Positions 3,301 to 55,217 of a stretch of DNA of 64,000 nt are shown here, in pieces; within the stretch, counting starts at the first letter, position 1, and the number at the start of each line of letters is the position of its first letter. The translations under genes were made by a program, and so were the position numbers. Source of the DNA: Owenia fusiformis. Lineage: Eukaryota. The DNA lies in the NCBI GenBank assembly GCA_903813345.2, contig CAIIXF020000001.1:930001-994000 (forward strand). Direction: 5' to 3'. The notes beneath the pieces are model-generated. The model saw only the letters and a list, made by a program, of their open reading frames with translations. It was not told the DNA's origin and ran no database searches.

Positions 3301-6300
3301 CATTATCATCAAGACCCATCAAGAAACATATTACAAATGGACTGAATATTGTCTCTATAGTATGATAATGCTTTGTTTTGATAGTAGCATTCTGTGCCAA
3401 GTTGATTTTGAACAGACACTACATTTTATATGGCAAGATCATTAGTTTGACCCTAAAGCCTGTAAATCAGAAATATATACCACGTAATAAACATTTTATT
3501 TCAACTCCACCTTATCTCAAAGACTACAGTGTTTTCCTTTATACAAGAGTAGATCAAACAGTAGTAGAGTTGCTGTACTCCCTTCACAAAATTTAAGACC
3601 ACTAAGATCTTGTTTATTTTGAAAAATAAAAATTTTCAGAACTTGTATAGTAAATAATTGAATGATACATGATTGGTCAAAAAATAAGAGACTGGAATGT
3701 TAGAAGTAAAAAAGAGTAATTTACATTGAACATTCTCTGCACTATATTTACACAGCCTGTGGGTTACTTAGTCTTGTATCAAGTCAATGTCTTTTTGCAC
3801 TATATTTACACAGCCTGTGGGTTACTTAGTCTTGTATCAAGTCAATGTCTCTGCACTATATTTACACAGCCTGTGGGTTACTTAGTCTTGTATCAAGTCA
3901 ATGTCTTTTCTCACTATATTTACATTTTACACAGCCTGTGGGTTACTTAGTCTTGTATCAAGTCAATGTCTTTTTGCACTATATTTACACAGCCTGTGGG
4001 TTATTAAGTCTTGTATCAAGTCAATGTCTTTTCACACTTTATTTACACAGCCTGTGGGTTACTTAGTCTTTTATCGAGTCAATGTCTTTTCGCACTATAT
4101 TTACACAGCCTGTGGGTTACTTAGTCTTGTATCAAGTCAATGTCTTTTCGCACTATATTTACACAGCCTGTGGGTTACTTAGTCTTGTATCAAGTCAATG
4201 ACTTTTTGCACTATATTTACACAGCCTGTGGGTTACTTAGTCTTGTATCAAGTCAATGTCTTTTCGCACTATATTTACACAGCCTGTGGGTTACTAAGTC
4301 TTGTATCAAGTCAATGTCTTTTCGCACTATATTTACACAGCCTGTCTTTTCGCACTATATTTACACAGCCTGTGGGTTACCAAGTCTTGTATCAAGTCAA
4401 TGTCTTTTCACACTATATTTACACAGCCTGTGGGTTACTTAGTCTTGTATCAAGTCAATGTCTTTTCGCACTATATTTACACAGCCTGTGGGTTACCAAG
4501 TCTTGTATCAAGTCAATGTCTTTTCACACTATATTTACACAGCCTGTGGGTTACTTAGTCTTGTATCAAGTCAATGTCTTTTCGCACTATATTTACACAG
4601 CCTGTGGGTTACCAAGTCTTGTATCAAGTCAATGTCTTTTCGCACTATATTTACACAGCCTGTGGGTTACCAAGTCTTGTATCAAGTCAATGTCTTTTCA
4701 CACTATATTTACACAGCCTGTGGGTTACTTAGTCTTGTATCAAGTCAATGTCTTTTCGCACTATATTTACACAGCCTGTGGGTTACCAAGTCTTGTATCA
4801 AGTCAATGTCTTTTCGCACTATATTTACACAGCCTGTGGGTTACCAAGTCTTGTATGAAGTCAATGTCTTTTCGCACTATATTTACACAGCATGTGGGTT
4901 ACTAAGTCTTGTATCAAGTCAATGTCTTTTCGTACTATATTTACACAGCCTGTGGGTTACCAAGTCTTGTATCAAGTCAATGTCTTTTCACACTATATTT
5001 ACACAGCCTGTGGGTTACTTAGTCTTGTATCAAGTCAATGTCTCCGCACTATATTTACACAGCCTGTGGGTTACTAAGTCTTGTATCAAGTCAATGTCTT
5101 TTCGCACTATATTTACACAGCCTGTGGGTTACTAAGTCTTGTATCAAGTCAATGTCTTTTCACACTATATTTACACAGCCTGTGGGTTACCAAGTTTTGT
5201 ATCAAGTCAATGTCTTTTCGCACTATATTTACACAGCCTGTGGGTTACTTAGTCTTGTATCAAGTCAATGTCTCCGCACTATATTTACACAGCCTGTGGG
5301 TTACTAAGTCTTGTATCAAGTCAATGTCTTTTCGCACTATATTTACACAGCCTGTGGGTTACTAAGTCTTGTATCAAGTCAATGTCTTTTCACACTATAT
5401 TTACACAGCCTGTGGGTTACCAAGTTTTGTATCAAGTCAATGTCTTTTCGCACTATATTTACACAGCCTGTGGGTTACTTAGTCTTGTATCAAGTCAATG
5501 TCTCCGCACTATATTTACACAGCCTGTGGGTTACCAAGTCTTGTATCAAGTCAATGTCTTTACGCACAAATTTACACAGCCTGTGGGTTACTAAGTCTTG
5601 TATCAAGTCAATGTCTTTTTGCACTATATTTACACAGCCTATGGGTTACTTAGTCTTGTATCAAGTCAATGTCTCTGCACTATATTTACACAGCCTGTGG
5701 GTTACTAAGTCTTGTATCAAGTCAATGTCTTTTCACACTATATTTACACAGCCTGTGGGTTACCAAGTTTTGTATCAAGTCAATGTCTTTTCGCACTATA
5801 TTTACACAGCCTATGGGTTACTTAGTCTTGTATCAAGTCAATGTCTCTGCACTATATTTACACAGCTTGTGGGTTACTAAGTCTTGTATCAAGTCAATGT
5901 CTTTTCACACTATATTTACACAGCCTGTGGGTTACTAAGTCTTGTATCAAGTCAATGTCTTTTCGCACTATATTTACACAGCCTGTGGGTTACTTAGTCT
6001 TGTATCAAGTCAATGTCTTTTCGCACTATATTTACACAGCCTGTGGGTTACCTAGTCTTGTATCAAGTCAATGTCTTTTCGCACTTTATTTACACAGCCT
6101 GTGGGTCACTTGTCTTTTGGGGCATGTAAGAATAATCAAAGAACCAAGCACCAGTAGTGGGAGATTGGATACCAAAGTGTATAATTCTCAGTTTTAGTGA
6201 GAGGGTTGCACTTTAGACTAGAGTCAGAGTAAGTTATATCACATTCTTTCATATAGCGGAAGATAATCCTACATTACTGCCCCTGATTCATCTTCCACAA

Positions 6301-21300: not shown

Positions 21301-24300
21301 AAATGCCATGGTATTTTATTGCCATGTTCCTGACCATCATTTACCATGGTATTACCATGGTATATCATGGTTGATTGCATTTCATGGCATTTCATTGTAA
21401 GGTGTGACAATCAAACGCCATGGTATTTCAATTCCATGTTCCTGACCGTAATTTACCATGGTATATCATGGTTGATGGCATTTCATTATAAGATATGACA
21501 ATCAAATACCATGGTAATACCATGGTATTTCATTGCCATGTTCCTGACCATCATTTACCATGGTATTACCATTGTATATCATGGTTGATGGTATTTCATT
21601 GTACAATTTGACAATCAAATGTCATGGTCATACCATGATATTTGATTGTTATGTACCTTACCATCATTTACTATGGTATTACAATTGTATATCATGGTTG
21701 ATGACATTTCATGGCATTTCATTGTACCGTTTGACAATCAATTACCATGGTCATACCATGTCATTTCATTGCCAAAATCATAACTCTCATTTATCATGGT
21801 TTTATCATTGCATTTCATGGTTGGTGGTATTTCATGGCATTTTATTGTCAAACCTGACCATCAAATACTATGGTCATACCATGGTATTTCATTATCCCAT
21901 CGAACGAAGTTCGGAGGGATATAGGGAACGCCTCCGTCCGTCCGGCCGTCCGTCCGTCCGTCCGTACGTCCGTACGTACGTACGTACGTCCGTCCGTCTG
22001 TCCGTCCGGGCAATAACTCAAATACCGTTGGCCCGATTTTGTTCATATTTTGTACACATATACCCTATGGGGGTAGAAGTTCTGCTCGAAAGCCGATTTT
22101 CAAAATTGCTGCTCATTTCAAAATAACGGCCATTTTAGTGCCGATTTTACAGTAATTTAGGTGCAATATGTAAAACTGTAATAGCAATATGTTTTAAATG
22201 TAAAAAAATTATAAAAGACATTAATAATGCTACAAATGTAGATATTAAAGAAGCACATGGCAGCCATCTTGAAAAATGGTCGCCTTTACTCGTCATTTTA
22301 TGATTTTTGCTGTAACTCAAAAAATAGTGGAGCGATTTTGTTCATATTTGGTATGTGAATACTATAAGCATTGCACACTGTCTAAAGACACTTTTGGTAG
22401 AAGGCGGCCATTTTGAAAAATGGCCGCCATTCTAACGTATTTTACTATAACTCGAAAAGTAGTGGAGCGATTTTGTTTATATTTGGTATGTGAATACTAT
22501 AAGCATGACACACTGTCCTATGACATTTTTGGTAGAAGGCAGCCATTTTGAAAAAAATTTTGAAAAATGGCCCCCATTTTAACGTATTTTACTATAACTC
22601 GAAAAGTAGTGGAGCGATTTTGTTCATATTTAGTATGTGAATACTATAAGCATGGCACACTGTCCTATGACACTTTTGGTAGAAGGCGGCCATTTTGAAA
22701 AATGGCCGCCATTTTAACATATTTTACTATAACTCGAAAAGTAGTGGAGCAATTTTGTTCATATTTGGTATGTGAATACTATAAGCATGGCACACTGTCT
22801 ATTTCTAATGACACTTTTGGTAGAAGGTGGCCATTTTGAAAAATGGCCACCATTTTAACGTATTTTATTATAACTCAAAAAGTAGTGGAGCGATTTTGTT
22901 CATATTTGATATGTGAATACTTTAAGCATGGCACATTGTCTAATAAAACTTTGGGGAGTAGTCGGCCATTTTGAAAAATGGCCACCATTTTTATGTGTGT
23001 TATTTTACAAGTACGTGTGTAATTTTTCAAAAATTTTAGAGGTAGCTACTTAAAAGCATATTATTTCTCCTAATGACAACTTGGCTAGTGAGCAACCATT
23101 TTGTAAATGGTGGCCTTTCTGGTGTGTTGTTTTATGATATTTGCTATTCGTTTGTAAAAATGCCAGCTATTTCTGTTCGATGGGATTCGCTACGCTTTGG
23201 CGTTGCCGTTGTTCTGGTTGCCATAATCATAACTATCATTTATCATGGCATATCATTGCATTTCGTGGTTGATTGTATTTCATAGCATTTCGTTGTCAAA
23301 CCTGACCATCAAATACCATAGTTATACCATGGTATTTCATTGCTAAAAAGAACTCTACAAGAGTCTCAAGTCTAAAATTGGTCAGAGTTGAAATGGATCA
23401 TGAAATGCAATGAAATACCACGTTTAACCATGAAATGCAATGAAATACAATGATTGATCATGATGTGCAATGTAATGCAATGGTCTTTCTTGCAATGCAG
23501 TGAAATACAATGAAAGGCCATGTTCAAAAAGTATTTTTTTACATGAAATATCTTTATTAATAAATGTTAATTAGATAACCAAATTATTATAATTAATGAT
23601 TCTGATATTCATCAAAATCAGAACTTTATATACTTTTGTTCCTTTATTTAATAAATTAATTTCTATTATGAATAATTAAGTTGATAACCCTAGAAACAAA
23701 TTTGTTTTTGTTAAACAAATATGCTTTACTTTTATTTGACTGTTGTCGGTTAAATAGGAGATCAACTTGGTATTTTGTAAGTCAAACCTCCAGTCTTCGA
23801 TTATATATCTTGACTGTACTTCATTGCATTTGATGGTTTGCAACCATGAAGTACTGCAAAATAGCAGTATTTTTAAATGCAAAATTTTAAGTATAGTTTC
23901 CACGGTATACCATTGTAGATCGTGATGATTAAATGGCTCCATTGCATATCATGGTTAAATGTCTAGACCATGGTATCACTGCATTGATGGTATTTGACCA
24001 TGAAATACTGTGAAACGGTGGTATTTTTTAGATACAAAATTACATGTTAATTGACCATGGTATACCATGGTATATCATGATCGTTAAATGGCACCATTGC
24101 ATTTCATGGTCAGGAGCATTTTTTAACATGGAGTTTCCCATTGAAAAAATACTGCCGTTTCACAGTATTTCATGGTCAGAAACCATCAAATGCAATGATA
24201 TCATGGCCGAGAACTTGACCATGATATCATTGCATTTGATGGTTTCTGACCATGAAATACTGCGAAACGGCAGTATTTTTTCAATGGAAAACTCCATGTT

Positions 24301-27300
24301 AAAACGCACTGTTAACAATGAAATGCAATGGTGCCATTTAACGTTCATGATCGGCCATGGTATTACCATGGTATTTCATTGCATTTCATGGCCATATACC
24401 TTGGTATACCATGGTCATACCATGGTATACCATGGTATGGCCATGGTCCATTTTAACATGGTATGGTATGATTGGAAATACAAGTTATTCTGCTGTGATG
24501 CAAAACTATGGGGTTCAGGATTGAGAGACAATGAGGGGGGGGGGTAGGGACTGAGGGAGGGGGCTGGATATGTTATTGTTGAAGAAATCAACTCAGGAGG
24601 GGGTCTGTATGTTATTCTTATTCCACCAGTCTTCTACCAAAATCAATACTATAAATATAAGATACCCAAAACAAGATGCAATTGGTCATTTCTTATCACA
24701 TGACGTTTTAGATGAGACCTTCTTTGTGAAATATCTCCACCTATGAAGATAATCATTTTAGAGTGATATGTGTGGTATAATTAAGTCAACAATTATTATG
24801 TGATATTCTGTTCAAGCTGAAGTGCATTACTCCCATTTTGGAGTTTCCTACTGACAAATTAAAACTCAAGACACAAAGATACAAACTATCTGACTGCAAG
24901 AAATGTTTAGATAAACAATAACATTTGGAACTAGTCAGGACTAACTAAATTTTTTTATTTACAATACAATATACAGAAATAATAACAATATTAGTGATCT
25001 CCCCAGCATTAAAGCAAGTGGGTGCAGCATCCACCTGAGATTTTGAAAATAGGCTTGCACCCACCTAAAAATCCATAATTGCACCCACTTGAAAATGAGA
25101 AAAGTCATGAAAATTGGCATATTTTGACTAATTTTGGTCTGAATTGTGAAAATGAGAATTTTGCACCCATTTGAGAACAAATCCTGTGGAGATCACTGAA
25201 TATGTCACCATATCTCTCATAGAACTAAGTACAATGTATTGAACAAGCATATCTGAACAAGTCACCAGGTAAATCTTATTTTTCAATGTTAAACCTATAC
25301 CTCTCTCCAAAACGCAATATATGAACATAAATTATTTTTCCATTTTTATACGACTGAAGAGATAATAAATGCTTAAATATAAATTTGACGTAGATATAAA
25401 CGTTTTTATGCGTAAAATTAAAGCATAACCATTAACTTAAAAAATAAAAAAAGAAGATGCCAGGATTCGAACCCGGACCGTCACAGTGACAGGCGAGGAC
25501 TTTGCCACTGTGCTACCTGGGCATTGGATATACATGCATGTAATTTAAGGGGATTTATTTAAACTTCTTTTTAGTAAGTCACGTGACATTCTAAATTTAG
25601 AAATCTTCGAAGAAATTTGTTTACCGGCGAACCTCTGAGCAAGTGCATGAACAATCGTCAAAATAACATCTTTATCGTGAGTATTTCTTCACAGTATTTG
25701 CTCCATTTGTTCATTATTGTATATGTTCTCATTAAAGCACAAAATATTACCAGGGACCCCAGGAACAACCTAAGATTGTGTTTTGGAGAGAGGTCCGGCT
25801 TTAACTGATTGCTACTTTTAAAGATTCTTAAAAAAGATTAGTTACCACTCAATCATTGTTTTGAAACTGTGAAAAAAGAAAAAAGAAATTTTGTAAAATT
25901 AAAACTGTTGAAGAACATTGACACTGCTCCATCTACAATGTAAATTCTTTAAAAAAACACTCACAATTCATAATATTGAAAGAACATATTCTCAGCGCTC
26001 TCTCTCCAGCTTAGTAGAAGTAGAAGTGAAAAGTACAAGTGAGATATAGTACCAAAGTGAATAACTGAGTAACCAGTGTCCAAATGCAGCATTACAGTGC
26101 CAATAGTGTCACACGGATGCTTAAAGGATCAAGAAGAAGAAAATATCACATATCCCCCCCTTTTTGGGCTCACTTCGCTTACAGTGATGCAAACACAAAA
26201 ATTAGCACCCCCTTAACAATTGCTGGCTATCTCCCTGACCATGTATTTAGTAAGATTAAACATTTATCATCATGATGCCATTGCAAATAATATTTGAATC
26301 CAAGGTGGTCATTAGCATAATTTGTCCCTCTTCTTTTACCATGTCCAATGAATATCAACCCATTGTACACAAATTACCCTCAGTGGGTGTTAAACACACC
26401 TGTTAGTTACTTTGTATTTGAAGGTGGGCATAAAATGACAAAAGGTGATTTGCCACATGATCACTAGGCCTAAAGGCTGAGGGTGTGGTGACAGTGTTCT
26501 GTTTGTTACAATAACATATCAATTCAACTTGATTTGATAAGTGCTTTTGGAAAATGGCACGTTTTATAATTGCATTCTTATAAAACTAGGAAATTATCAC
26601 TAAAAAAGAAAGCGTTTATCTACACCCTACTAGTCTATTTCTATTTCTTCACTTCCTGATTTTTTCTAAAAAAATGACAAAAAAGACAAAAAAAATGTGG
26701 ATGAATCGTAAGTCACCTGTCGAGAACTAATACTGAGAAAAATGAATGAATAAATACCGGCATCAATCTTTAAAGTATTCACAGCTTCTACTTGAGGATG
26801 TGGATCACTGGAACTACGCTCCCGCTCAATATTTGGAGAACCTTCCATTTCTGTTTTGGTCGCCATTACTGAAAATTTACATGACAAGGTGTCACAGAAA
26901 CTTTGATATGATTATTTTTGTCAAATATGAACTATTTGTCCTGTTTTTTAGATATACACCTAAGAATGATTTGTAGGAAGGATTTTCTCTAGCAATATTT
27001 TATGTGATTGTGTGGTACAATTTATATTTCACATCTAGATAGAGTCTAGTCAATTTGTAAAATAATCGTCGTGGATTAATTAGAGTGGTCTGAACGAAAT
27101 AAAACATTCCCCGGGAATGTGAACTGACCATAGCATGATCCCTCTAAACCCTAGATGCCCGGGCCTAGATGTGGGTCAATTTCATTGAAAAAAAATCACT
27201 GAAGATATTTTGAATTTCAACAATTTTGAAGTAGATTCATGTGGGAGAGTAGAACGTATTGATGGGAACTATATATATTGTGGGAAAATTTCATTTTTTG

Positions 27301-47505: not shown

Positions 47506-50500
47506 CATGCTTAATATATAGTAAACACAGAGGACGTTAAACTTTTGAAAGATTAAGAGGATACCTATTTATGTGACTGTATTGTATTACTGTTTACTGC
47601 ATTAAATGTCAAGTATAATATCTGCTATTTTACAACCGCGTATATTTCACTTATTAATGGTATACAAAATGTTAAATGATATTTTGAAACACATTTAGCA
47701 CTCTCACAATCATTACAATAACAAATCCAAGTGGCTTTCACGATTTAAGTTCCATGTACAATTGAAGAAGTTAGAAATAGACAAAGATAATAAATCTTAA
47801 CCTGAATTAAATTAAAAGTTTTAGATTTCCACACATATTACCTCATTTCCTATATACGTTATATTTAGGGTGAGGATTATGATCTAGAAACTGGGCATGT
47901 GTTAATACAGCCATTCTCTCTGGAATCTTAAAGTCACACTTTTGAAATATGACTAAGTCAGAAAAAGGCTTCTTACTGGTAGTAGAATGCAGTAATCTTG
48001 ATTTACTTCATCAAAGTTCAGTATTCAGTATTTTCATGTTTGAAATCAACATGTAAAATTACATCTAGATATATGGTTTCAAAAGGTGTTTTCTTCTTGC
48101 CATATTGAACAAATATCTTCTTTTATTGTATATATTTTAGGTTGTATAACTATCAGACATATAAGGGTAATATAAAAATTGAACCACTAAAACTGATAAA
48201 TATTCAAGTTTAAGGGAACTTTCTAATACCCTGCCATGTTATCTACCCCGAATTAACCACTTGGTGGTGACAATGGTAACTACCTACACACATCTGCCTC
48301 ATTCGCTTTGAATATTTGAGAAACAATTATTTTTCCAACTATTTTTTCATAATCTCTAAAACAACTTTTGGGAGTCACGAAGAATGGTCCCAATAGGTAT
48401 TAATAAAAATGAATTTGAAAAACGCATTTTGTAGCATTATGGGTCACTGCACTAAATGATCCCTATCTTAGTCTATCTGGGTTCAAACTCTTAATATTCT
48501 CCAAAGTATAGTTTGACATTGAATTTGTTATTGTAAACCTAAAAATAATCCATTCTGGCCATAGGGGTAATTGTCATATTGAAATTGATTTTCATGAAAT
48601 TCATAAATGACCCCTTGGGGATGAAAGGGTTAATATCTAATTTGGCATTCACTAAAAATTCAAATTGAGGTCAGATTCTTCCCATTCAGCTTTCCAACGG
48701 TGTATTGGAACCTTAGTTCAGAGGTGGTCATTTATAGCACCCTAGTTTGCTCTACTTATTGCATTATTGTAGAAATTGTTTTTAGTTTTCCTCAAATACA
48801 GTATACATTTTGTTCTTAGGGATAAAAAGGAATGATATGAGCCCAACAATTATAAAATTGAAACAATATTTTCAAGAGTACTCTGAGACTTGTGAGGCCC
48901 ATCTTGCTAGTCTGATACTACCTTTTTACATGGATTCTGTTATATTTTAGATGTACCTGTAGTCACGTTATTGCTGACAGTGATCATCATGGTTTTGATA
49001 TCACAGAGTGAAAGTATAACCATAGCAGATAAGACAAAGATTGATAAAGGCCTTACAGCGGGACATGAGATTTTCAATTATATAGCAGATAAAAAGTTTT
49101 CAGAATCCCTAACTAAAATTTCTTCCGCAATCGGACCATTCTTGGGGGCATTTGGTCCATTTGTCAGCTTGGTTCTTACGTTTGTCCCATCATCGGATAC
49201 AGCAGTTGTGCAATTGTTGACAGGGATGATGGACAGAATCGAGAACAGATTTGATCAAGTAGATTCACGTTTTGATGAAATAAAACGGCTGGTTGAATGG
49301 ACTGATGAAGCGGTGAACTTTGGGCAAATAGAACAGAAGATATGGGCGATGAATGTAGCATATAGGAGACTTTATCGTGGAAATGGAACTGGAGAAGCAG
49401 CAAATAGGAAACAGGCATATATTGATGAATTTGACAATAATTATCAACAAAGTGGAATAAACCTCTACCATGCAATAGTTAACAAACATGGCACGTTTCA
49501 GGAAAATCTTGGAGAATCAATAATGCGTTTCACTGACTACGACCGCAAGAAGACACAAGATTTTCTTCTTGGCATTTTGCGACTCATCTTGAATGCGGCA
49601 AAAATCGAAATCGCTTACTACAATGTGAAACAATTCAACTCGATTGCAGAGGAAAGGAAGTCTGAATGGGAAACAAAGATTCAAAGAGTGAAATCTGAAT
49701 TTGAACATATCGATAAGACAGTTATTCATCAGTGTCATTCTCAATCTAAAAAGGACATCAAAAAGATTTCTGCCGATAATTATAAAATGGGCAATGAACA
49801 ATTTAGTAGTAAATTGTATGACATGTTAACAGAGAAATACTATTGGCGTAATTGGTTGGTCGTTGTTTATGATGAAGTACGTGGTTTTGACAAGCATACC
49901 GTCAGCCAATGTGGTGGATATATAAAATTTCGAAAAGACGGACGAAATCTAGTTGTTGCAAGTTTGGACAAGAATCAGGATGTGCAACAAATGTCTAGGC
50001 AAAGCGCACGAACGAAGTTGATCAAAAATGGAAAGTATGCAAAGGAACTTGTAAAGGTGATGGTTTTGCCTGCTGGGTATCCCAAGCCTAAGATTCCATA
50101 TGCCAGGATACTTTATAAAAAGATCGATACAAAAAGCGCATGTAGCACCATTTCTATTATTTCAAGTGCGAATGTCTGGCACAGGGGTCCTGTGAGCAAA
50201 CTTGTTTTTCGCCAATATTATGGTAACCTGCAAGCAATTTTGTTTGGGAACTTTAATACTTCCAAAATAACTCCAAGCAGTAACTGGATGTCAATGTCTC
50301 GTCAAGACATTAAAGATTTAGCATCCGATTATGATCGCATAAGCAACAAATATTTTAGTAGCAGATTGTACGACATGTTAAAGGAAAGGTATTATTGGCG
50401 CGATTGGTTTGTAGTTGTATACGATGATATAAAGGGGTTTTCCAAGCATACAGTTCGGAAATGTGGTGGACATATTCTATTTCGGCAAAATAGAAGAAAC

Positions 50501-50770
50501 ATAATGGTGTCGAGCATTGACAAGAATAAGAGTGTTGGTACAAGGACATTGCAAAGCGCAAAGTCAAGCTTGAAAAACATTCCATGGAAAGGGACGGGAG
50601 ATACATTCGCAAAGAGAATGTATAACAAGATCGATAAGACAGAGGCGTGTGGTGTTGTTTCTGTTTTGACAAATGCGCATGTATCGTACAGAGGTGATAA
50701 AGACAAGATTGCTTATCGTAATTTAAAGGGTCACTTACATATGATCCTGTTTGGTAAATTCAAAAACTAG
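46977..50770 (+). CDS. Secreted 608-aa protein: rapunzel/SE-cephalotoxin-like helical N-terminal domain plus two tandem C-terminal repeats
   Basis: join(46977-46983,48951-50770): ATGGCAG|GT...tattttAG|AT gives the signal peptide MADVPVVTLLLTVIIMVLISQSES. An amphipathic segment ISSAIGPFLGAFGPFVSLVLTFV is followed by a coiled coil. Two ~155-170-aa repeats each contain FSS(K/R)LYDML.E(K/R)YYWR.W.VVVYD...GF.KHTV..CGG.I.FR. AATAAA at 50935. The family assignment is by recalled motif similarity only. Confidence 0.85.
47473..47505. repeat. (GATT)n microsatellite
   Basis: About 8 GATT units. Confidence 0.9.
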
Positions 50771-53891: not shown

Positions 53892-55080
53892 TCAATATCT
53901 AGTGGGATAACCCCGACTTAGGATAAGGGCATGAACTCTTCTGGGCATGCTTTCAAAGAGTCTCCTGGTGTACTGCCCAGGGATTTGAACCCATGCTCTA
54001 TGAACGGCAATTTCCAGCTCGCGGAGGTTGTTCATTTGAAGATTCTGTATCTGGCGATCAATATAATGCCACATATTTTCAATAAGTGATTGGTCTGCTG
54101 AATATGGTGGCCATCTCATTTTGTTAACGCCGCTTTGAAAGAACCACTCTTCAACTTGATTCGCAGTATGAACGGGAGCGTTGTCCTGTTGAAAGACGCA
54201 GCGCTGCTCACTGTCACCAAGCATCTGTTCAATGGATGGTAGAAGTTTCTCCTGCAAAATATCTCTATGTACCCCTCTCGTGATGACTCCAGGGACCGTG
54301 ACTAGCTCCCCAACACCATGATACCCGACGCACCCACAAAACATGAGACCACCACGTCTTACAGTTCGTCCCATGTAGAGGCACTCTGGGTTGTATTTCT
54401 CAGCATTCGTGCGCTACACAATCGTCCTGCCATCATTTTCTCCAATATTGTATCTCGTTTCATCCGAAAAAACTACGTAAGACCAATGAGTATTGACATT
54501 CTAAAACCGGAAAACATTTGCCCATTTCAATCGTCGTTGTCGTATGATGGGGGGAGTAATAGGCTTTTCTTGGCTATTCGACCGTACAGACTTCTGTTAT
54601 GTAAACCGAATGAATAAAGACATTTTATAGAGCAAATAAAACTTTAAAACAAAACCAGCATTGTCGGCAATAGTTAGCAATTATTGCGTAAAGTTGATGA
54701 ATATTTTCGAGAAGTTCGTCAAAATTGAAGTAGGAAAAATAAAAAGTGACAATATCGCACCTTCTCCTGATAGTAGAGTAGCTTGCACGTATGTTAAAGT
54801 TCATCTGCCAGAAGGTTTTCAGTCTTGGGACTGTTGTCTTACGTTCTAGCAGGGTATGGTTGACAAGGGCGCGGTCCTCTCTCAATGTAGAAATGTAAGG
54901 CCTTCCAGAGAGGGGTCGGTCCCTGTTTGACCTTGTATTTCGAAATCGTTTAATGGTTTTTGATATTGTGCCCTTGCAGCGATTCAGCGTTAGACCAATA
55001 TATCGCAACGTCCGACCCTCATTGCAGAGGGCAATAACGGTTACCCGTTCATCACGAGTAAGCTGTCGTGCAGACTCCAT
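53892..55080 (-). pseudogene. Tc1 transposase (DD34E), disrupted, one intron
   Basis: The paired-like HTH exon 55080-54761 (…SGRP…TIRRR, donor AG|GTGCG) is followed by an intron to about 54606 with a degenerate acceptor. Catalytic motifs VFSDET, QQDNAPVH and SADQSLIENMW have 34-aa D-E spacing. One frameshift and two TAG stops. Confidence 0.88.
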
Positions 55081-55217
55081 GAGAAATGAGCGAAATGTTA
55101 ACGTTAACATACGTGTATCAAGACAGTGACCAAATCACTCATTCACTGTCATGCATGATGGAATCAATTGTTCAGAACTCATTTCACCAAAAAAGATAAA
55201 AAAATATATCTCATCAA

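Follow-up and report, generated by a model that had tools for sequence, protein, structure and literature searches.

The locus at positions 27279-34145 (+ strand, 6867 bp) of the window, by which we mean the whole 64-kb stretch of DNA that was analyzed, has two LTRs around an interior that codes for Gag and a protease. It raises the question of what kind of element this is and how it might be copied when its single gene includes no other pol enzyme.

Boundaries and cis signals of the element

Direct comparison and blastn of the two LTRs revealed 0 mismatches over 1681 positions, with the match breaking off exactly at both borders. The signals that accompany them, listed below by coordinates and strand, are those of an LTR retrotransposon, namely, TG..CA direct repeats, a TSD, a PBS, and a PPT.

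27275..27278, no strand: TSD ATAT, 5' copy, by direct reading
27279..28959, + strand: 5' LTR, 1681 bp, with TG..CA ends
28327..28603, + strand: degenerate tandem repeats within the 5' LTR, with units of ~22, 42, and 79 bp, found with TRF
28741..28835, + strand: candidate TATA box TATAAA at 28741 and candidate poly(A) signal ATTAAA at 28830, from a motif scan
28961..28978, + strand: PBS, beginning 1 nt past the 5' LTR and complementary to the 3' end of tRNA-Leu(AAG)
32453..32462, + strand: PPT AGAAGGGGGG, 2 nt 5' of the 3' LTR, by direct reading
32465..34145, + strand: 3' LTR, 1681 bp, the same as the 5' LTR
33513..33789: counterpart of the tandem-repeat array in the 3' LTR, found with TRF
34146..34149, no strand: TSD ATAT, 3' copy, by direct reading

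The initial annotation had described LTRs that look identical, a 4-bp TSD, a tRNA-Leu PBS, and a PPT, and it was borne out on all of these: exact alignment of the LTRs gave 1681/1681 identical positions, ATAT flanks both of them, and the PPT is at its expected place beside the 3' LTR. The PBS is an 18/18 match to a tRNA-Leu(AAG) 3'-end probe given in the part of PMC6103689 that was available to us, the probe being human and not the host tRNA; ARAGORN found 0 tRNA genes in the 64-kb window. The 5' copy of the TSD lies inside a TATATATAT run, and the 4-bp match alone is therefore modest evidence. The candidate TATA box and poly(A) signal would jointly define the U3/R/U5 borders. Blastn recovered no further copies of the element in the window, the only hits being self-matches and the LTR internal repeats, and Rfam gave 0 matches across the whole window at the gathering score. 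Together with the coding capacity described below, these features support a structurally complete and very young LTR element whose sole gene is Gag-protease.

A single ORF with Gag, protease, and a basic tail

The interior is occupied by one ORF, separated from the 5' LTR by 46 nt and from the 3' LTR by 60 nt; no open frame elsewhere in the element exceeds 160 aa. Its parts are as follows.

29006..32404, + strand: single ORF, Gag-protease-tail, 1132 aa, stop codon counted in the coordinates
29330..29575, + strand: long helix, coiled-coil candidate, residues 109-190, from a single-sequence AF2 model
30512..31009, + strand: capsid (CA) with two lobes, residues ~503-668, from fold and homology to gypsy Gag
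31190..31285, + strand: nucleocapsid (NC) with two CX2CX4HX4C knuckles, residues 729-742 and 747-760, by regex on the translation
31385..31705, + strand: retropepsin (PR), residues ~794-900, from fold and homology
31448..31456, + strand: PR active-site motif D815-S-G, by regex on the translation
31736..32401, + strand: K/R/S-rich C-terminal tail, residues 911-1132, from composition, with no Pfam match

On the basis of homology and fold, we found that the core of the ORF (residues ~503-910) is a Ty3/gypsy capsid followed by two CCHC knuckles and a D-S-G retropepsin. Searched alone against PDB sequences, the ORF retrieves only weak zinc-knuckle matches, and its own Pfam CA and PR matches fall under the curated cut-offs (Ty3_capsid and DUF1759 for the CA), with zf-CCHC over its cut-off at 2.5e-6. 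Structural comparison of the two-lobed CA with VIA-align gave Z scores of 9.8 to the rat Arc CTD, 9.6 to the PEG10 CA-CTD, 9.5 to the copia capsid, 9.4 to the dArc1 capsid (158 aligned), and 8.8 to PNMA2. The best Foldseek matches of the PR are the Ddi1 RVP and the EIAV/HIV proteases (E ~1e-7), and VIA-align scores it against the EIAV PR at Z 14.9. Further, the family profile matches Ty3 Gag-Pol and retroviral-like proteases, the latter at 4e-22, and the active-site D and G are invariant across the 25-sequence alignment. The uninterrupted 1132-aa ORF, the capsid-like domain, the two CCHC knuckles, and the DSG protease that had originally been noticed in the translation are thus all upheld.

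The N-terminal 500 residues consist of one long helix and apparent disorder. In the single-sequence AF2 model, the pLDDT exceeds 90 across the helix at residues 109-190, with a mean of 51.8 overall and low confidence outside the helix. The coiled coil that had been placed in this part accordingly stands as a confidently modeled helix, and its coiled-coil nature is retained as a candidate; coiled-coil-type Pfam matches to the ORF are weak. A comparison of residues 1-490 with a protein atlas gave a best score of 0.75, which is under any useful level. At the other end, the 222-residue tail occupies the position expected for RT-RH-IN.

Absence of pol and relationships of the ORF

Pfam searches (E<=1) detected no RT, RNase H, or integrase in the element, and tblastn searches of all six frames with full-length relatives as queries recovered no remnants of these domains at E<=10, in agreement with the initial annotation, which had noticed no pol enzyme other than the protease. 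The Gag-PR homology is confined to nt 30512-31735, and in no frame is there an alignment (E<=10) to the RT/RH/IN region of P0003, a full-length relative. There is no RT or IN elsewhere in the 64-kb window, and no autonomous partner was found in the window or in the protein and contig collections searched; a string made of the LTR end plus the PBS gave 0 matches among metagenome contigs. With no RT or IN, its cis signals kept, and a gag-containing ORF open, the element agrees in these features with protein-coding, non-autonomous deletion derivatives of the ATHILA gag-PR or IAP 1-delta-1 type.

Two relatives are full-length, P0003 (1964 aa), which matches 95% of residues 480-900 at E 1.7e-41, and P0045 (1666 aa); both follow the gypsy arrangement PR-RVT_1-RT_RNaseH-Integrase_H2C2-rve. 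The homology of its Gag (CA-NC) and retropepsin suggests that the element belongs to Ty3/gypsy, with the order of the pol domains taken from the relatives only. An affiliation with Bel/Pao, prompted by the sub-threshold DUF1759 match, was rejected because these relatives carry gypsy-type RT_RNaseH and Integrase_H2C2. The clade yields other pol-less Gag-PR proteins. In P0015, whose ORF of 848 aa lies on a contig of 2964 nt, Gag-PR is fused to the zinc-finger tail that follows the integrase in P0003, and P0029 from Mytilus edulis combines Gag-PR with only the integrase C-terminal SH3.

Searches with the tail (residues 900-1132) retrieved a sole relative, P0005 (NCBI CAH1788731.1), among proteins shorter than 622 aa. 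None of the 431 candidates among proteins of 622-1981 aa reached E<=0.01, and neither the 5 pattern matches in viral contigs nor the 98 in metagenome contigs were confirmed (0 in both cases). P0005 is a partial protein labeled as coming from Owenia fusiformis, an annelid; it has the end of the PR and both halves of the tail, with 64% identity to the ORF over residues 860-996 and 54% over residues 1012-1127, and it is without RT or IN. This combination of a common tail and no RT suggests that the open pol-less frame predates the present copy, with the proviso that P0005 is a partial and maybe spliced gene model, so that its absent RT could be an annotation effect. P0005 retains the post-PR linker domain, as judged by hhalign against the family profile (96%, E 4e-9), a homology that is invisible in BLASTP against P0003.

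Copies and variants in public runs

Evidence for further copies comes from assembled contigs of three public runs, X1, X2, and X3, that were placed on the element; these contigs are short. X2 and X3 stem from other studies, and X1 may be the source sample of the window and is not to be taken as independent. The joint at which the interior meets the LTR (32464->27279) is reproduced in contigs of all three. The contigs point to other copies with the same interior: interior sequence of at least 85% identity, tail included, is multi-copy in X2 and X3, and in both runs, the summed contig depth, which is not a copy number, is greater across the whole interior than in the unique flank. In X3, the summed depth is 31-93 in the four flank bins (26239-27198), 414-1644 in the 14 internal bins, which is ~5-30x the flank, and ~2900-25000 in the LTR bins. 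The bins with the LTR tandem repeats have the deepest summed depth in the public runs, and the tail bins equal the N-terminal bins. The 1292 contigs placed fall into identity classes of >=99% (377), 95-99% (378), 90-95% (363), and <90% (174), with depths of 200-524 for near-identical internal contigs versus 31-58 for flank contigs. The initial annotation had set its reading against a deletion that arose in this copy after insertion. The multi-copy interior in X2 and X3 and the tail in P0005 support the conclusion that the pol-less form is not such a private event.

In X1, the best-matching run, a 1179-nt contig covers 30691-31869, from the capsid/NC through the PR into the first part of the tail, with 1 mismatch, and an LTR contig (1 mismatch in 470) continues from 28959 into a different flank, which points to another insertion or a solo LTR. 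The depths in this run (6.4 for exact internal contigs, ~4-5.5 in the flank, and 12-14 in the LTRs) suggest that the young variant is possibly present once or twice and that the other copies are possibly older. The short contigs of the runs revealed no other complete copy flanked by a TSD of its own.

The three internal-region joints listed skip 129, 39, and 351 nt, each a multiple of three, and the ORF indels among those listed comprise only a compensating -1/+1 pair, 2 nt apart, in one contig. Among the 17 internal variants listed (699 more exist), 6 are synonymous, 11 are non-synonymous, and 0 are stops, a distribution without a clear signature of purifying selection. A check of RNA-seq data had been proposed initially: the RNA-seq reads of run X21 give a depth of 0-1.3 over the interior, with ~6% of the run read. 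No RNA runs are among those listed as matching the element. As a separate observation, the flank at 26239-27198 has a depth of 0 in X2 versus 170-545 in the interior. This would fit RNA; the type of X2 is a guess, and we do not count the pattern as evidence.

Origin and mode of spread

The locus probably belongs to a family of non-autonomous LTR retrotransposons that derives from Ty3/gypsy and has only a Gag-PR-tail ORF, and its integration would be recent. The ancestral interior would have lost RT, RNase H, integrase, and the post-protease linker domain, which would have left one in-frame ORF in which a variable N-terminal region precedes the capsid, nucleocapsid, retropepsin, and basic tail. 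RNA would be transcribed from the 5' LTR, and an autonomous relative recognizing the same ends might provide RT and integrase in trans. We see an even chance that the element's own Gag-PR is translated and favors, in cis, the packaging of the RNA that encodes it, as mouse IAP 1-delta-1 does. The interpretation in the initial annotation is supported in part; its actively spreading family that makes and matures its own capsid and borrows pol from a partner is a prediction that may apply.

The same locus could instead be a passive defective copy, one of the internal deletion derivatives that form continually and are occasionally co-packaged. Its Gag-PR and tail would then play no part in its own spread, and its ORF would be open merely owing to its youth and to a deletion that by chance was in frame. 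The X1 depth, by which the exact variant would be present once or twice, is consistent with this, as are the 17 listed variants without a clear synonymous excess, the negligible RNA-seq coverage in X21, and the many unrelated pol-less derivatives in the clade, which fit frequent accidental deletion. However, the tail is open and recognizable in P0005 at 54-64% identity, 3/3 of the listed internal length variants are in frame, and X3 and X2 show multiple copies of the complete interior, and we regard a passive copy as rather unlikely. We consider it very improbable that a full-length element was collapsed in assembly or deleted after insertion, with the LTR identity stemming from polishing or gene conversion. 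Long identical repeats are classic sites of assembly collapse, and X1 may be the window's own source sample, but the joint 32464->27279 and coverage from the PR into the tail are present in X3 and X2 at depths far over the flank, the ORF stays in frame through the expected site of pol, and the tail is common to P0005.

The capsid fold, which matches Arc, PEG10, and PNMA2, brings up a Gag-PR gene heading to Arc/PEG10-like host use or serving as a restriction factor against autonomous relatives. The frame conserved between two diverged lineages would accord with this, as would the presence of Drt2, a Gag-derived restriction factor of Ty1, among the fold matches (rank 11). Against it stand the intact identical LTRs, PBS, PPT, and TSD and the multi-copy family, which are the signature of a mobile element and not of a fixed single-copy host gene. 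The locus therefore differs from a domesticated Gag, i.e., a single-copy, LTR-less host locus, and we hold such a role to be highly unlikely.

The favored reading, a non-autonomous mobile family, can be extended, more tentatively, to a long-lived Gag-protease-only LTR lineage in annelids, perhaps spiralians, in which selection has kept the tail and architecture across ~40% protein divergence and which builds and matures its own capsid and takes RT and integrase from another element. This is possible and somewhat doubtful at present; if true, the lineage would be a stable capsid-bearing hyperparasite and a possible intermediate towards PEG10-like host genes.

Comparison with known systems

The initial annotation overstated the novelty of the element, since, as far as the available parts of the sources go, the gag-PR derivatives of ATHILA and wheat Fatima and mouse IAP 1-delta-1 were already known. 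A lifestyle with borrowed copying enzymes is known from plants and mice, and the element represents no new category. We found no description in the literature of a gag-protease-only LTR family in an animal; TE tables of annelid genomes (e.g., PMC9977687) may list such families. The element extends to animals a non-autonomous way of life with gag and protease that has so far been spelled out for the plant ATHILA and Fatima, and its nearest named relative is an annelid protein. The identical LTRs and uninterrupted ORF make this an unusually clean copy, well suited to questions such as whether such an element needs its own capsid and protease, how it finds a partner's RT and integrase, and whether it marks a step towards domesticated Gag-PR genes.

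Non-autonomous deletion derivatives of ATHILA with Gag plus protease are described in the portion of PMC11735389 available to us. Like the present element, they are Ty3/gypsy elements with gag and protease only and are found in many copies; they differ in having a plant host and a known autonomous parent family, whereas none has been found so far for the present element, which adds a novel 500-aa N-terminal region and the in-frame 222-aa basic tail. According to the accessible part of bioRxiv 10.1101/363192, subfamilies 1.4 and 1.5 of wheat Fatima (RLC_famc1) have gag and protease ORFs only, and its authors put forward a two-component arrangement with RT and IN provided by another subfamily. 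Fatima shares the gag-protease-only content and the two-component proposal with our case, but it is a plant element of the Copia superfamily with an identified partner subfamily, whereas here, no partner was found in the collections searched.

Mouse IAP 1-delta-1 is a protein-coding non-autonomous animal LTR element, given in the consulted part of PMC6466679 as the most active subtype, with a fusion protein that acts in cis. It resembles the present element as an animal LTR element in which an internal deletion led to one in-frame fusion ORF; unlike it, IAP 1-delta-1 is a class II ERV whose deletion takes parts of gag and pol, with other pol parts staying. Trans-complementation is experimentally established for IAP, and for the present element, it is predicted from sequence. 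TR-GAGs, as defined in the part of Chaparro et al. 2015 (PMC4350172) available to us, are plant elements of <4 kb with a single Gag ORF and nothing that resembles aspartic protease, IN, RT, or RH. They share LTRs, PBS, PPT, one Gag ORF, the lack of RT/RH/IN, and a presumed mobilization in trans with our element. The initial annotation had drawn this comparison, but the label does not fit, because the definition excludes a protease and is limited to 4 kb, and the element has a protease and is 6867 bp long; we rejected membership on both counts. LARD/TRIM membership was likewise rejected, as the 1132-aa ORF fills the interior.

PEG10, Arc, and PNMA share the capsid fold with the element (7lga, 7r24, 6s7x, and 8rb3 are among the fold matches). 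All three are LTR-less single-copy host genes, whereas the present locus is a mobile, multi-copy element with cis signals. PEG10 retains a protease, as does the element.

Structure and age of the element

Re-reading of the sequence, ORF calling, and blastn bore out the coordinates and features that the initial annotation had assigned to a young LTR element at 27279-34145.

Features of the element (window coordinates; residues refer to the ORF)
27279-28959 and 32465-34145: LTRs of 1681 bp each, 0 mismatches (direct comparison; blastn agrees)
ATAT abutting the element left and right: target-site duplication (read from the sequence)
28961-28978: primer-binding site (PBS) of 18 bases, beginning one base past the 5' LTR and matching the 3' end of tRNA-Leu(AAG)
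29006-32404: ORF of 1132 codons, starting 46 nt past the 5' LTR and ending 60 nt short of the 3' LTR
Residues 729-742 and 747-760: zinc knuckles (ORF translation)
D815-S-G: protease active-site motif (ORF translation)
AGAAGGGGGG, 2 nt upstream of the 3' LTR: polypurine tract (PPT; read from the sequence)
28327-28603 and again 33513-33789: degenerate tandem repeats of the LTR, unit about 22 bp
28741 TATAAA and 28830 ATTAAA: motifs in the 5' LTR (motif scan)

The LTRs begin with TG and end with CA, and by both direct comparison and blastn their identity ends precisely at the two borders. Since the left ATAT copy lies inside a TATATATAT run, the duplication by itself is weak evidence. The PBS was matched to the human tRNA-Leu(AAG) 3'-end probe printed in an excerpt of PMC6103689, which may differ from the host tRNA; no tRNA genes were found in the window. 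The positions of TATAAA and ATTAAA would fit an inferred U3/R/U5 layout of the LTR. No other open frame of more than 160 codons occurs in any frame of the element, and the 60 nt downstream of the stop codon lead directly to the PPT and then the LTR. The G+C content of the element is 44 to 48%, versus 30 to 38% in the flanks. Everything that reverse transcription and integration require in cis is intact. The LTRs show no difference over 1681 bp, and the copy is very young; if substitutions accrue at 5e-9 to 1e-9 per site annually, a rate assumed here rather than derived from the host, the first LTR-LTR difference is expected after roughly 60 to 300 thousand years.

The single ORF encodes capsid, nucleocapsid, and protease

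Pfam searches with the ORF alone were weak, the zinc knuckle being the sole domain above the cutoff, with Ty3_capsid, DUF1759, and Asp_protease_2 below it. Homology settles the identity of the core. Searching 1.84 billion representative proteins yielded 6847 matches at an E value of ≤1e-3; among the matches listed, the best-matching stretches fall within about residues 390 to 960, mostly 495 to 916, the exception being the top match, P0005. A word-indexed search recovered four relatives. Those of full length, P0003 (1964 aa) and P0045 (1666 aa), are arranged as in gypsy elements, with protease (PR), RVT_1, RT_RNaseH, Integrase_H2C2, and rve. A 25-member family profile run against the PDB retrieved Ty3 Gag-Pol, retroviral-like aspartic protease 1 (4e-22), DDI1, and HIV nucleocapsid, and in the underlying alignment the D and G of the protease motif are invariant.

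An AlphaFold2 model of residues 480 to 915 built with this alignment has a mean pLDDT of 81.5. Its C-terminal domain is retropepsin-like, with Foldseek E values of about 1e-7 to the Ddi1 RVP domain and the EIAV and HIV proteases, and a VIA-align Z score of 14.9 to EIAV protease. Its helical N-terminal part (ORF residues about 503 to 668) matches two-lobed capsids, with VIA-align Z scores of 9.8 (rat Arc CTD), 9.6 (PEG10 CA-CTD), 9.5 (copia capsid), 9.4 (dArc1, over 158 residues), and 8.8 (PNMA2); these values lie under the safe level that VIA-align gives for helical proteins, and the capsid assignment draws on their mutual consistency together with sequence homology. The sole gene of the element codes for capsid, nucleocapsid, and protease.

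P0005 aside, the remainder of the ORF is without known relatives or folds. Homology searches found no relatives of residues 1 to 500, a single-sequence model of the N-terminal region has a confident helix only at 109 to 190, the remainder being of low confidence, and the protein atlas returned nothing useful for it. K, R, and S abound in residues 911 to 1132, the tail C terminal to the retropepsin, for which Pfam gave no match.

Absence of pol in the element and in some relatives

Pfam searches at an E value of ≤1 detected no reverse transcriptase (RT), RNase H (RH), or integrase (IN) in the element. When the related proteins P0001 to P0004, including the full RT-RH-IN region of P0003, were compared with all six frames by tblastn (E ≤ 10), alignment was confined to nucleotides 30512 to 31735 in the frame of the ORF. 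To judge by its sequence, pol is truly absent.

In other animals, the related proteins P0015, P0029, P0140, and P0006 have Gag-PR fused to differing leftovers, namely, a post-integrase zinc-finger tail, an integrase C-terminal SH3 domain, an integrase N-terminal zinc-binding region (by eye), and an S/R-rich tail.

P0005 is a partial protein of 409 aa labelled Owenia fusiformis (annelid). It aligns with query residues 860 to 996, the protease end and the beginning of the tail, at 64% identity and with 1012 to 1127, the last part, reaching the C terminus, at 54%. Between these parts it has about 160 residues missing from the element ORF, which correspond to a conserved post-protease domain of the clade (hhalign 96%, E 4e-9), a homology not detected by BLASTP alone. 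No RT or IN was found in P0005. As it shares the tail and is without pol, the tail and the protease-to-tail frame predate insertion of the element and have stayed open across about 40% protein divergence, with the caveat that P0005, a gene model placed on a 39.8-Mb record, could be spliced.

P0015, whose 848-aa ORF runs without a break on a contig of 2964 nt, joins Gag-PR to the zinc-finger tail found after the integrase in P0003, and P0029 (Mytilus edulis) has Gag-PR with the integrase C-terminal SH3 only; several other clade proteins possess the protease and are missing RT. This suggests that in-frame pol deletions are recurrent in this gypsy clade.

A probable family rather than an accident at one locus

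Together with P0005, public sequencing runs offer a second, likewise indirect, line favoring a family over an accident at this locus. Four runs from the same organism were compared with positions 25279 to 32464 at ≥85% likeness. In X3, presumed to be DNA and from a different study than X1, the summed depth, which is not a copy number, is 31 to 93 in four unique-flank bins, 414 to 1644 in 14 internal bins, and about 2900 to 25000 in LTR bins. Near-identical internal contigs have depths of 200 to 524 versus 31 to 58 for the flank, the tail bins (533 to 862) match the N-terminal bins, and the 1292 aligned contigs fall in every identity class (377 at ≥99%, 378 at 95 to 99%, 363 at 90 to 95%, and 174 at <90%). 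The joint of the interior with the 3' LTR (32464 to 27279) was found in X1, X3, and X2, and a 1179-nt X1 contig with a single mismatch extends from capsid/nucleocapsid across PR and into the tail. Another X1 contig, from the LTR, continues past 28959 into a flank unlike the locus or the PBS and so comes from another LTR copy elsewhere. The three internal length variants listed skip 129, 39, and 351 nt, in each case a multiple of three.

On the other side, exact internal contigs in X1 (6.4) are hardly deeper than flank contigs (4 to 5.5), so the young variant may occur only once or twice there, and none of the run contigs revealed a further complete copy bearing a target-site duplication of its own. 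The LTR tandem-repeat block (28327-28603, 33513-33789) has by far the greatest summed depth (about 23000 to 25000 in X3 and 13000 in X2) and numerous length variants among contigs; this repeat may also be present outside the family. Taken together, that the element is a non-autonomous Gag-PR member of a multicopy family is well supported.

Other features of the window

53892-55134 (-): two neighboring open frames with a DDE_3 endonuclease (4.6e-11) and HTH_38/HTH_32 (2.5e-8), resembling a broken Tc1/mariner-type transposase gene
48911-50770 (+): unbroken 619-aa frame with 0 Pfam matches; protein atlas likeness of 0.88 to mollusc and nematode clusters with CTXL_M/DUF684, a lead only
4183-6197 (+): several overlapping open frames of 120 to 240 aa whose only Pfam hits are scattered and lack their own matched stretch, probably low-complexity or repeat sequence rather than a gene
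25279-26238 and 26719-26958: other repeats in the left flank, with mismatch-rich contigs and high summed depth

In X21, RNA-seq reads stack on short left-flank segments (e.g., 25649-25693 and from 26758), at least 40 of them continuing into other sequence; the run-off sequence at 26758 recurs in an X1 DNA contig.

Proposed mechanism and comparison with described elements

RT and integrase would be supplied in trans by an autonomous relative accepting the same PBS, PPT, and LTR ends. The genomic RNA of the element probably serves as the mRNA for its Gag-PR. By analogy with mouse IAP 1-delta-1, for which preference for its own RNA in cis was demonstrated (PMC6466679, in excerpt), Gag-PR may act in cis and favor its own RNA. 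Such a two-component mechanism, with a presumed partner, is plausible and rests on inference. In the RNA-seq run X21, about 6% of which was read, interior depth is 0 to 1.3. The 17 internal variants listed (6 synonymous, 11 nonsynonymous, 0 stops) are no demonstration of selection.

We rejected the label TR-GAG, the authors of which, in the excerpted definition (PMC4350172), demand that a protease be absent and that the element measure less than 4 kb. Among the papers listed by the literature search, none names an animal gag-protease-only LTR family; such a family may well be catalogued already in supplements or curated repeat libraries. As far as the excerpted sources go, two plant cases come close to the element: an ATHILA deletion derivative of Arabidopsis with gag and protease only, "found in high numbers" (PMC11735389), and wheat Fatima subfamilies with gag and protease ORFs only, for which the authors propose another subfamily as the source of RT and IN (bioRxiv 10.1101/363192). 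The closest described animal case is mouse IAP 1-delta-1 (PMC6466679). Against this background, the points of interest are the host group, the clean copy, and the conserved non-pol tail.
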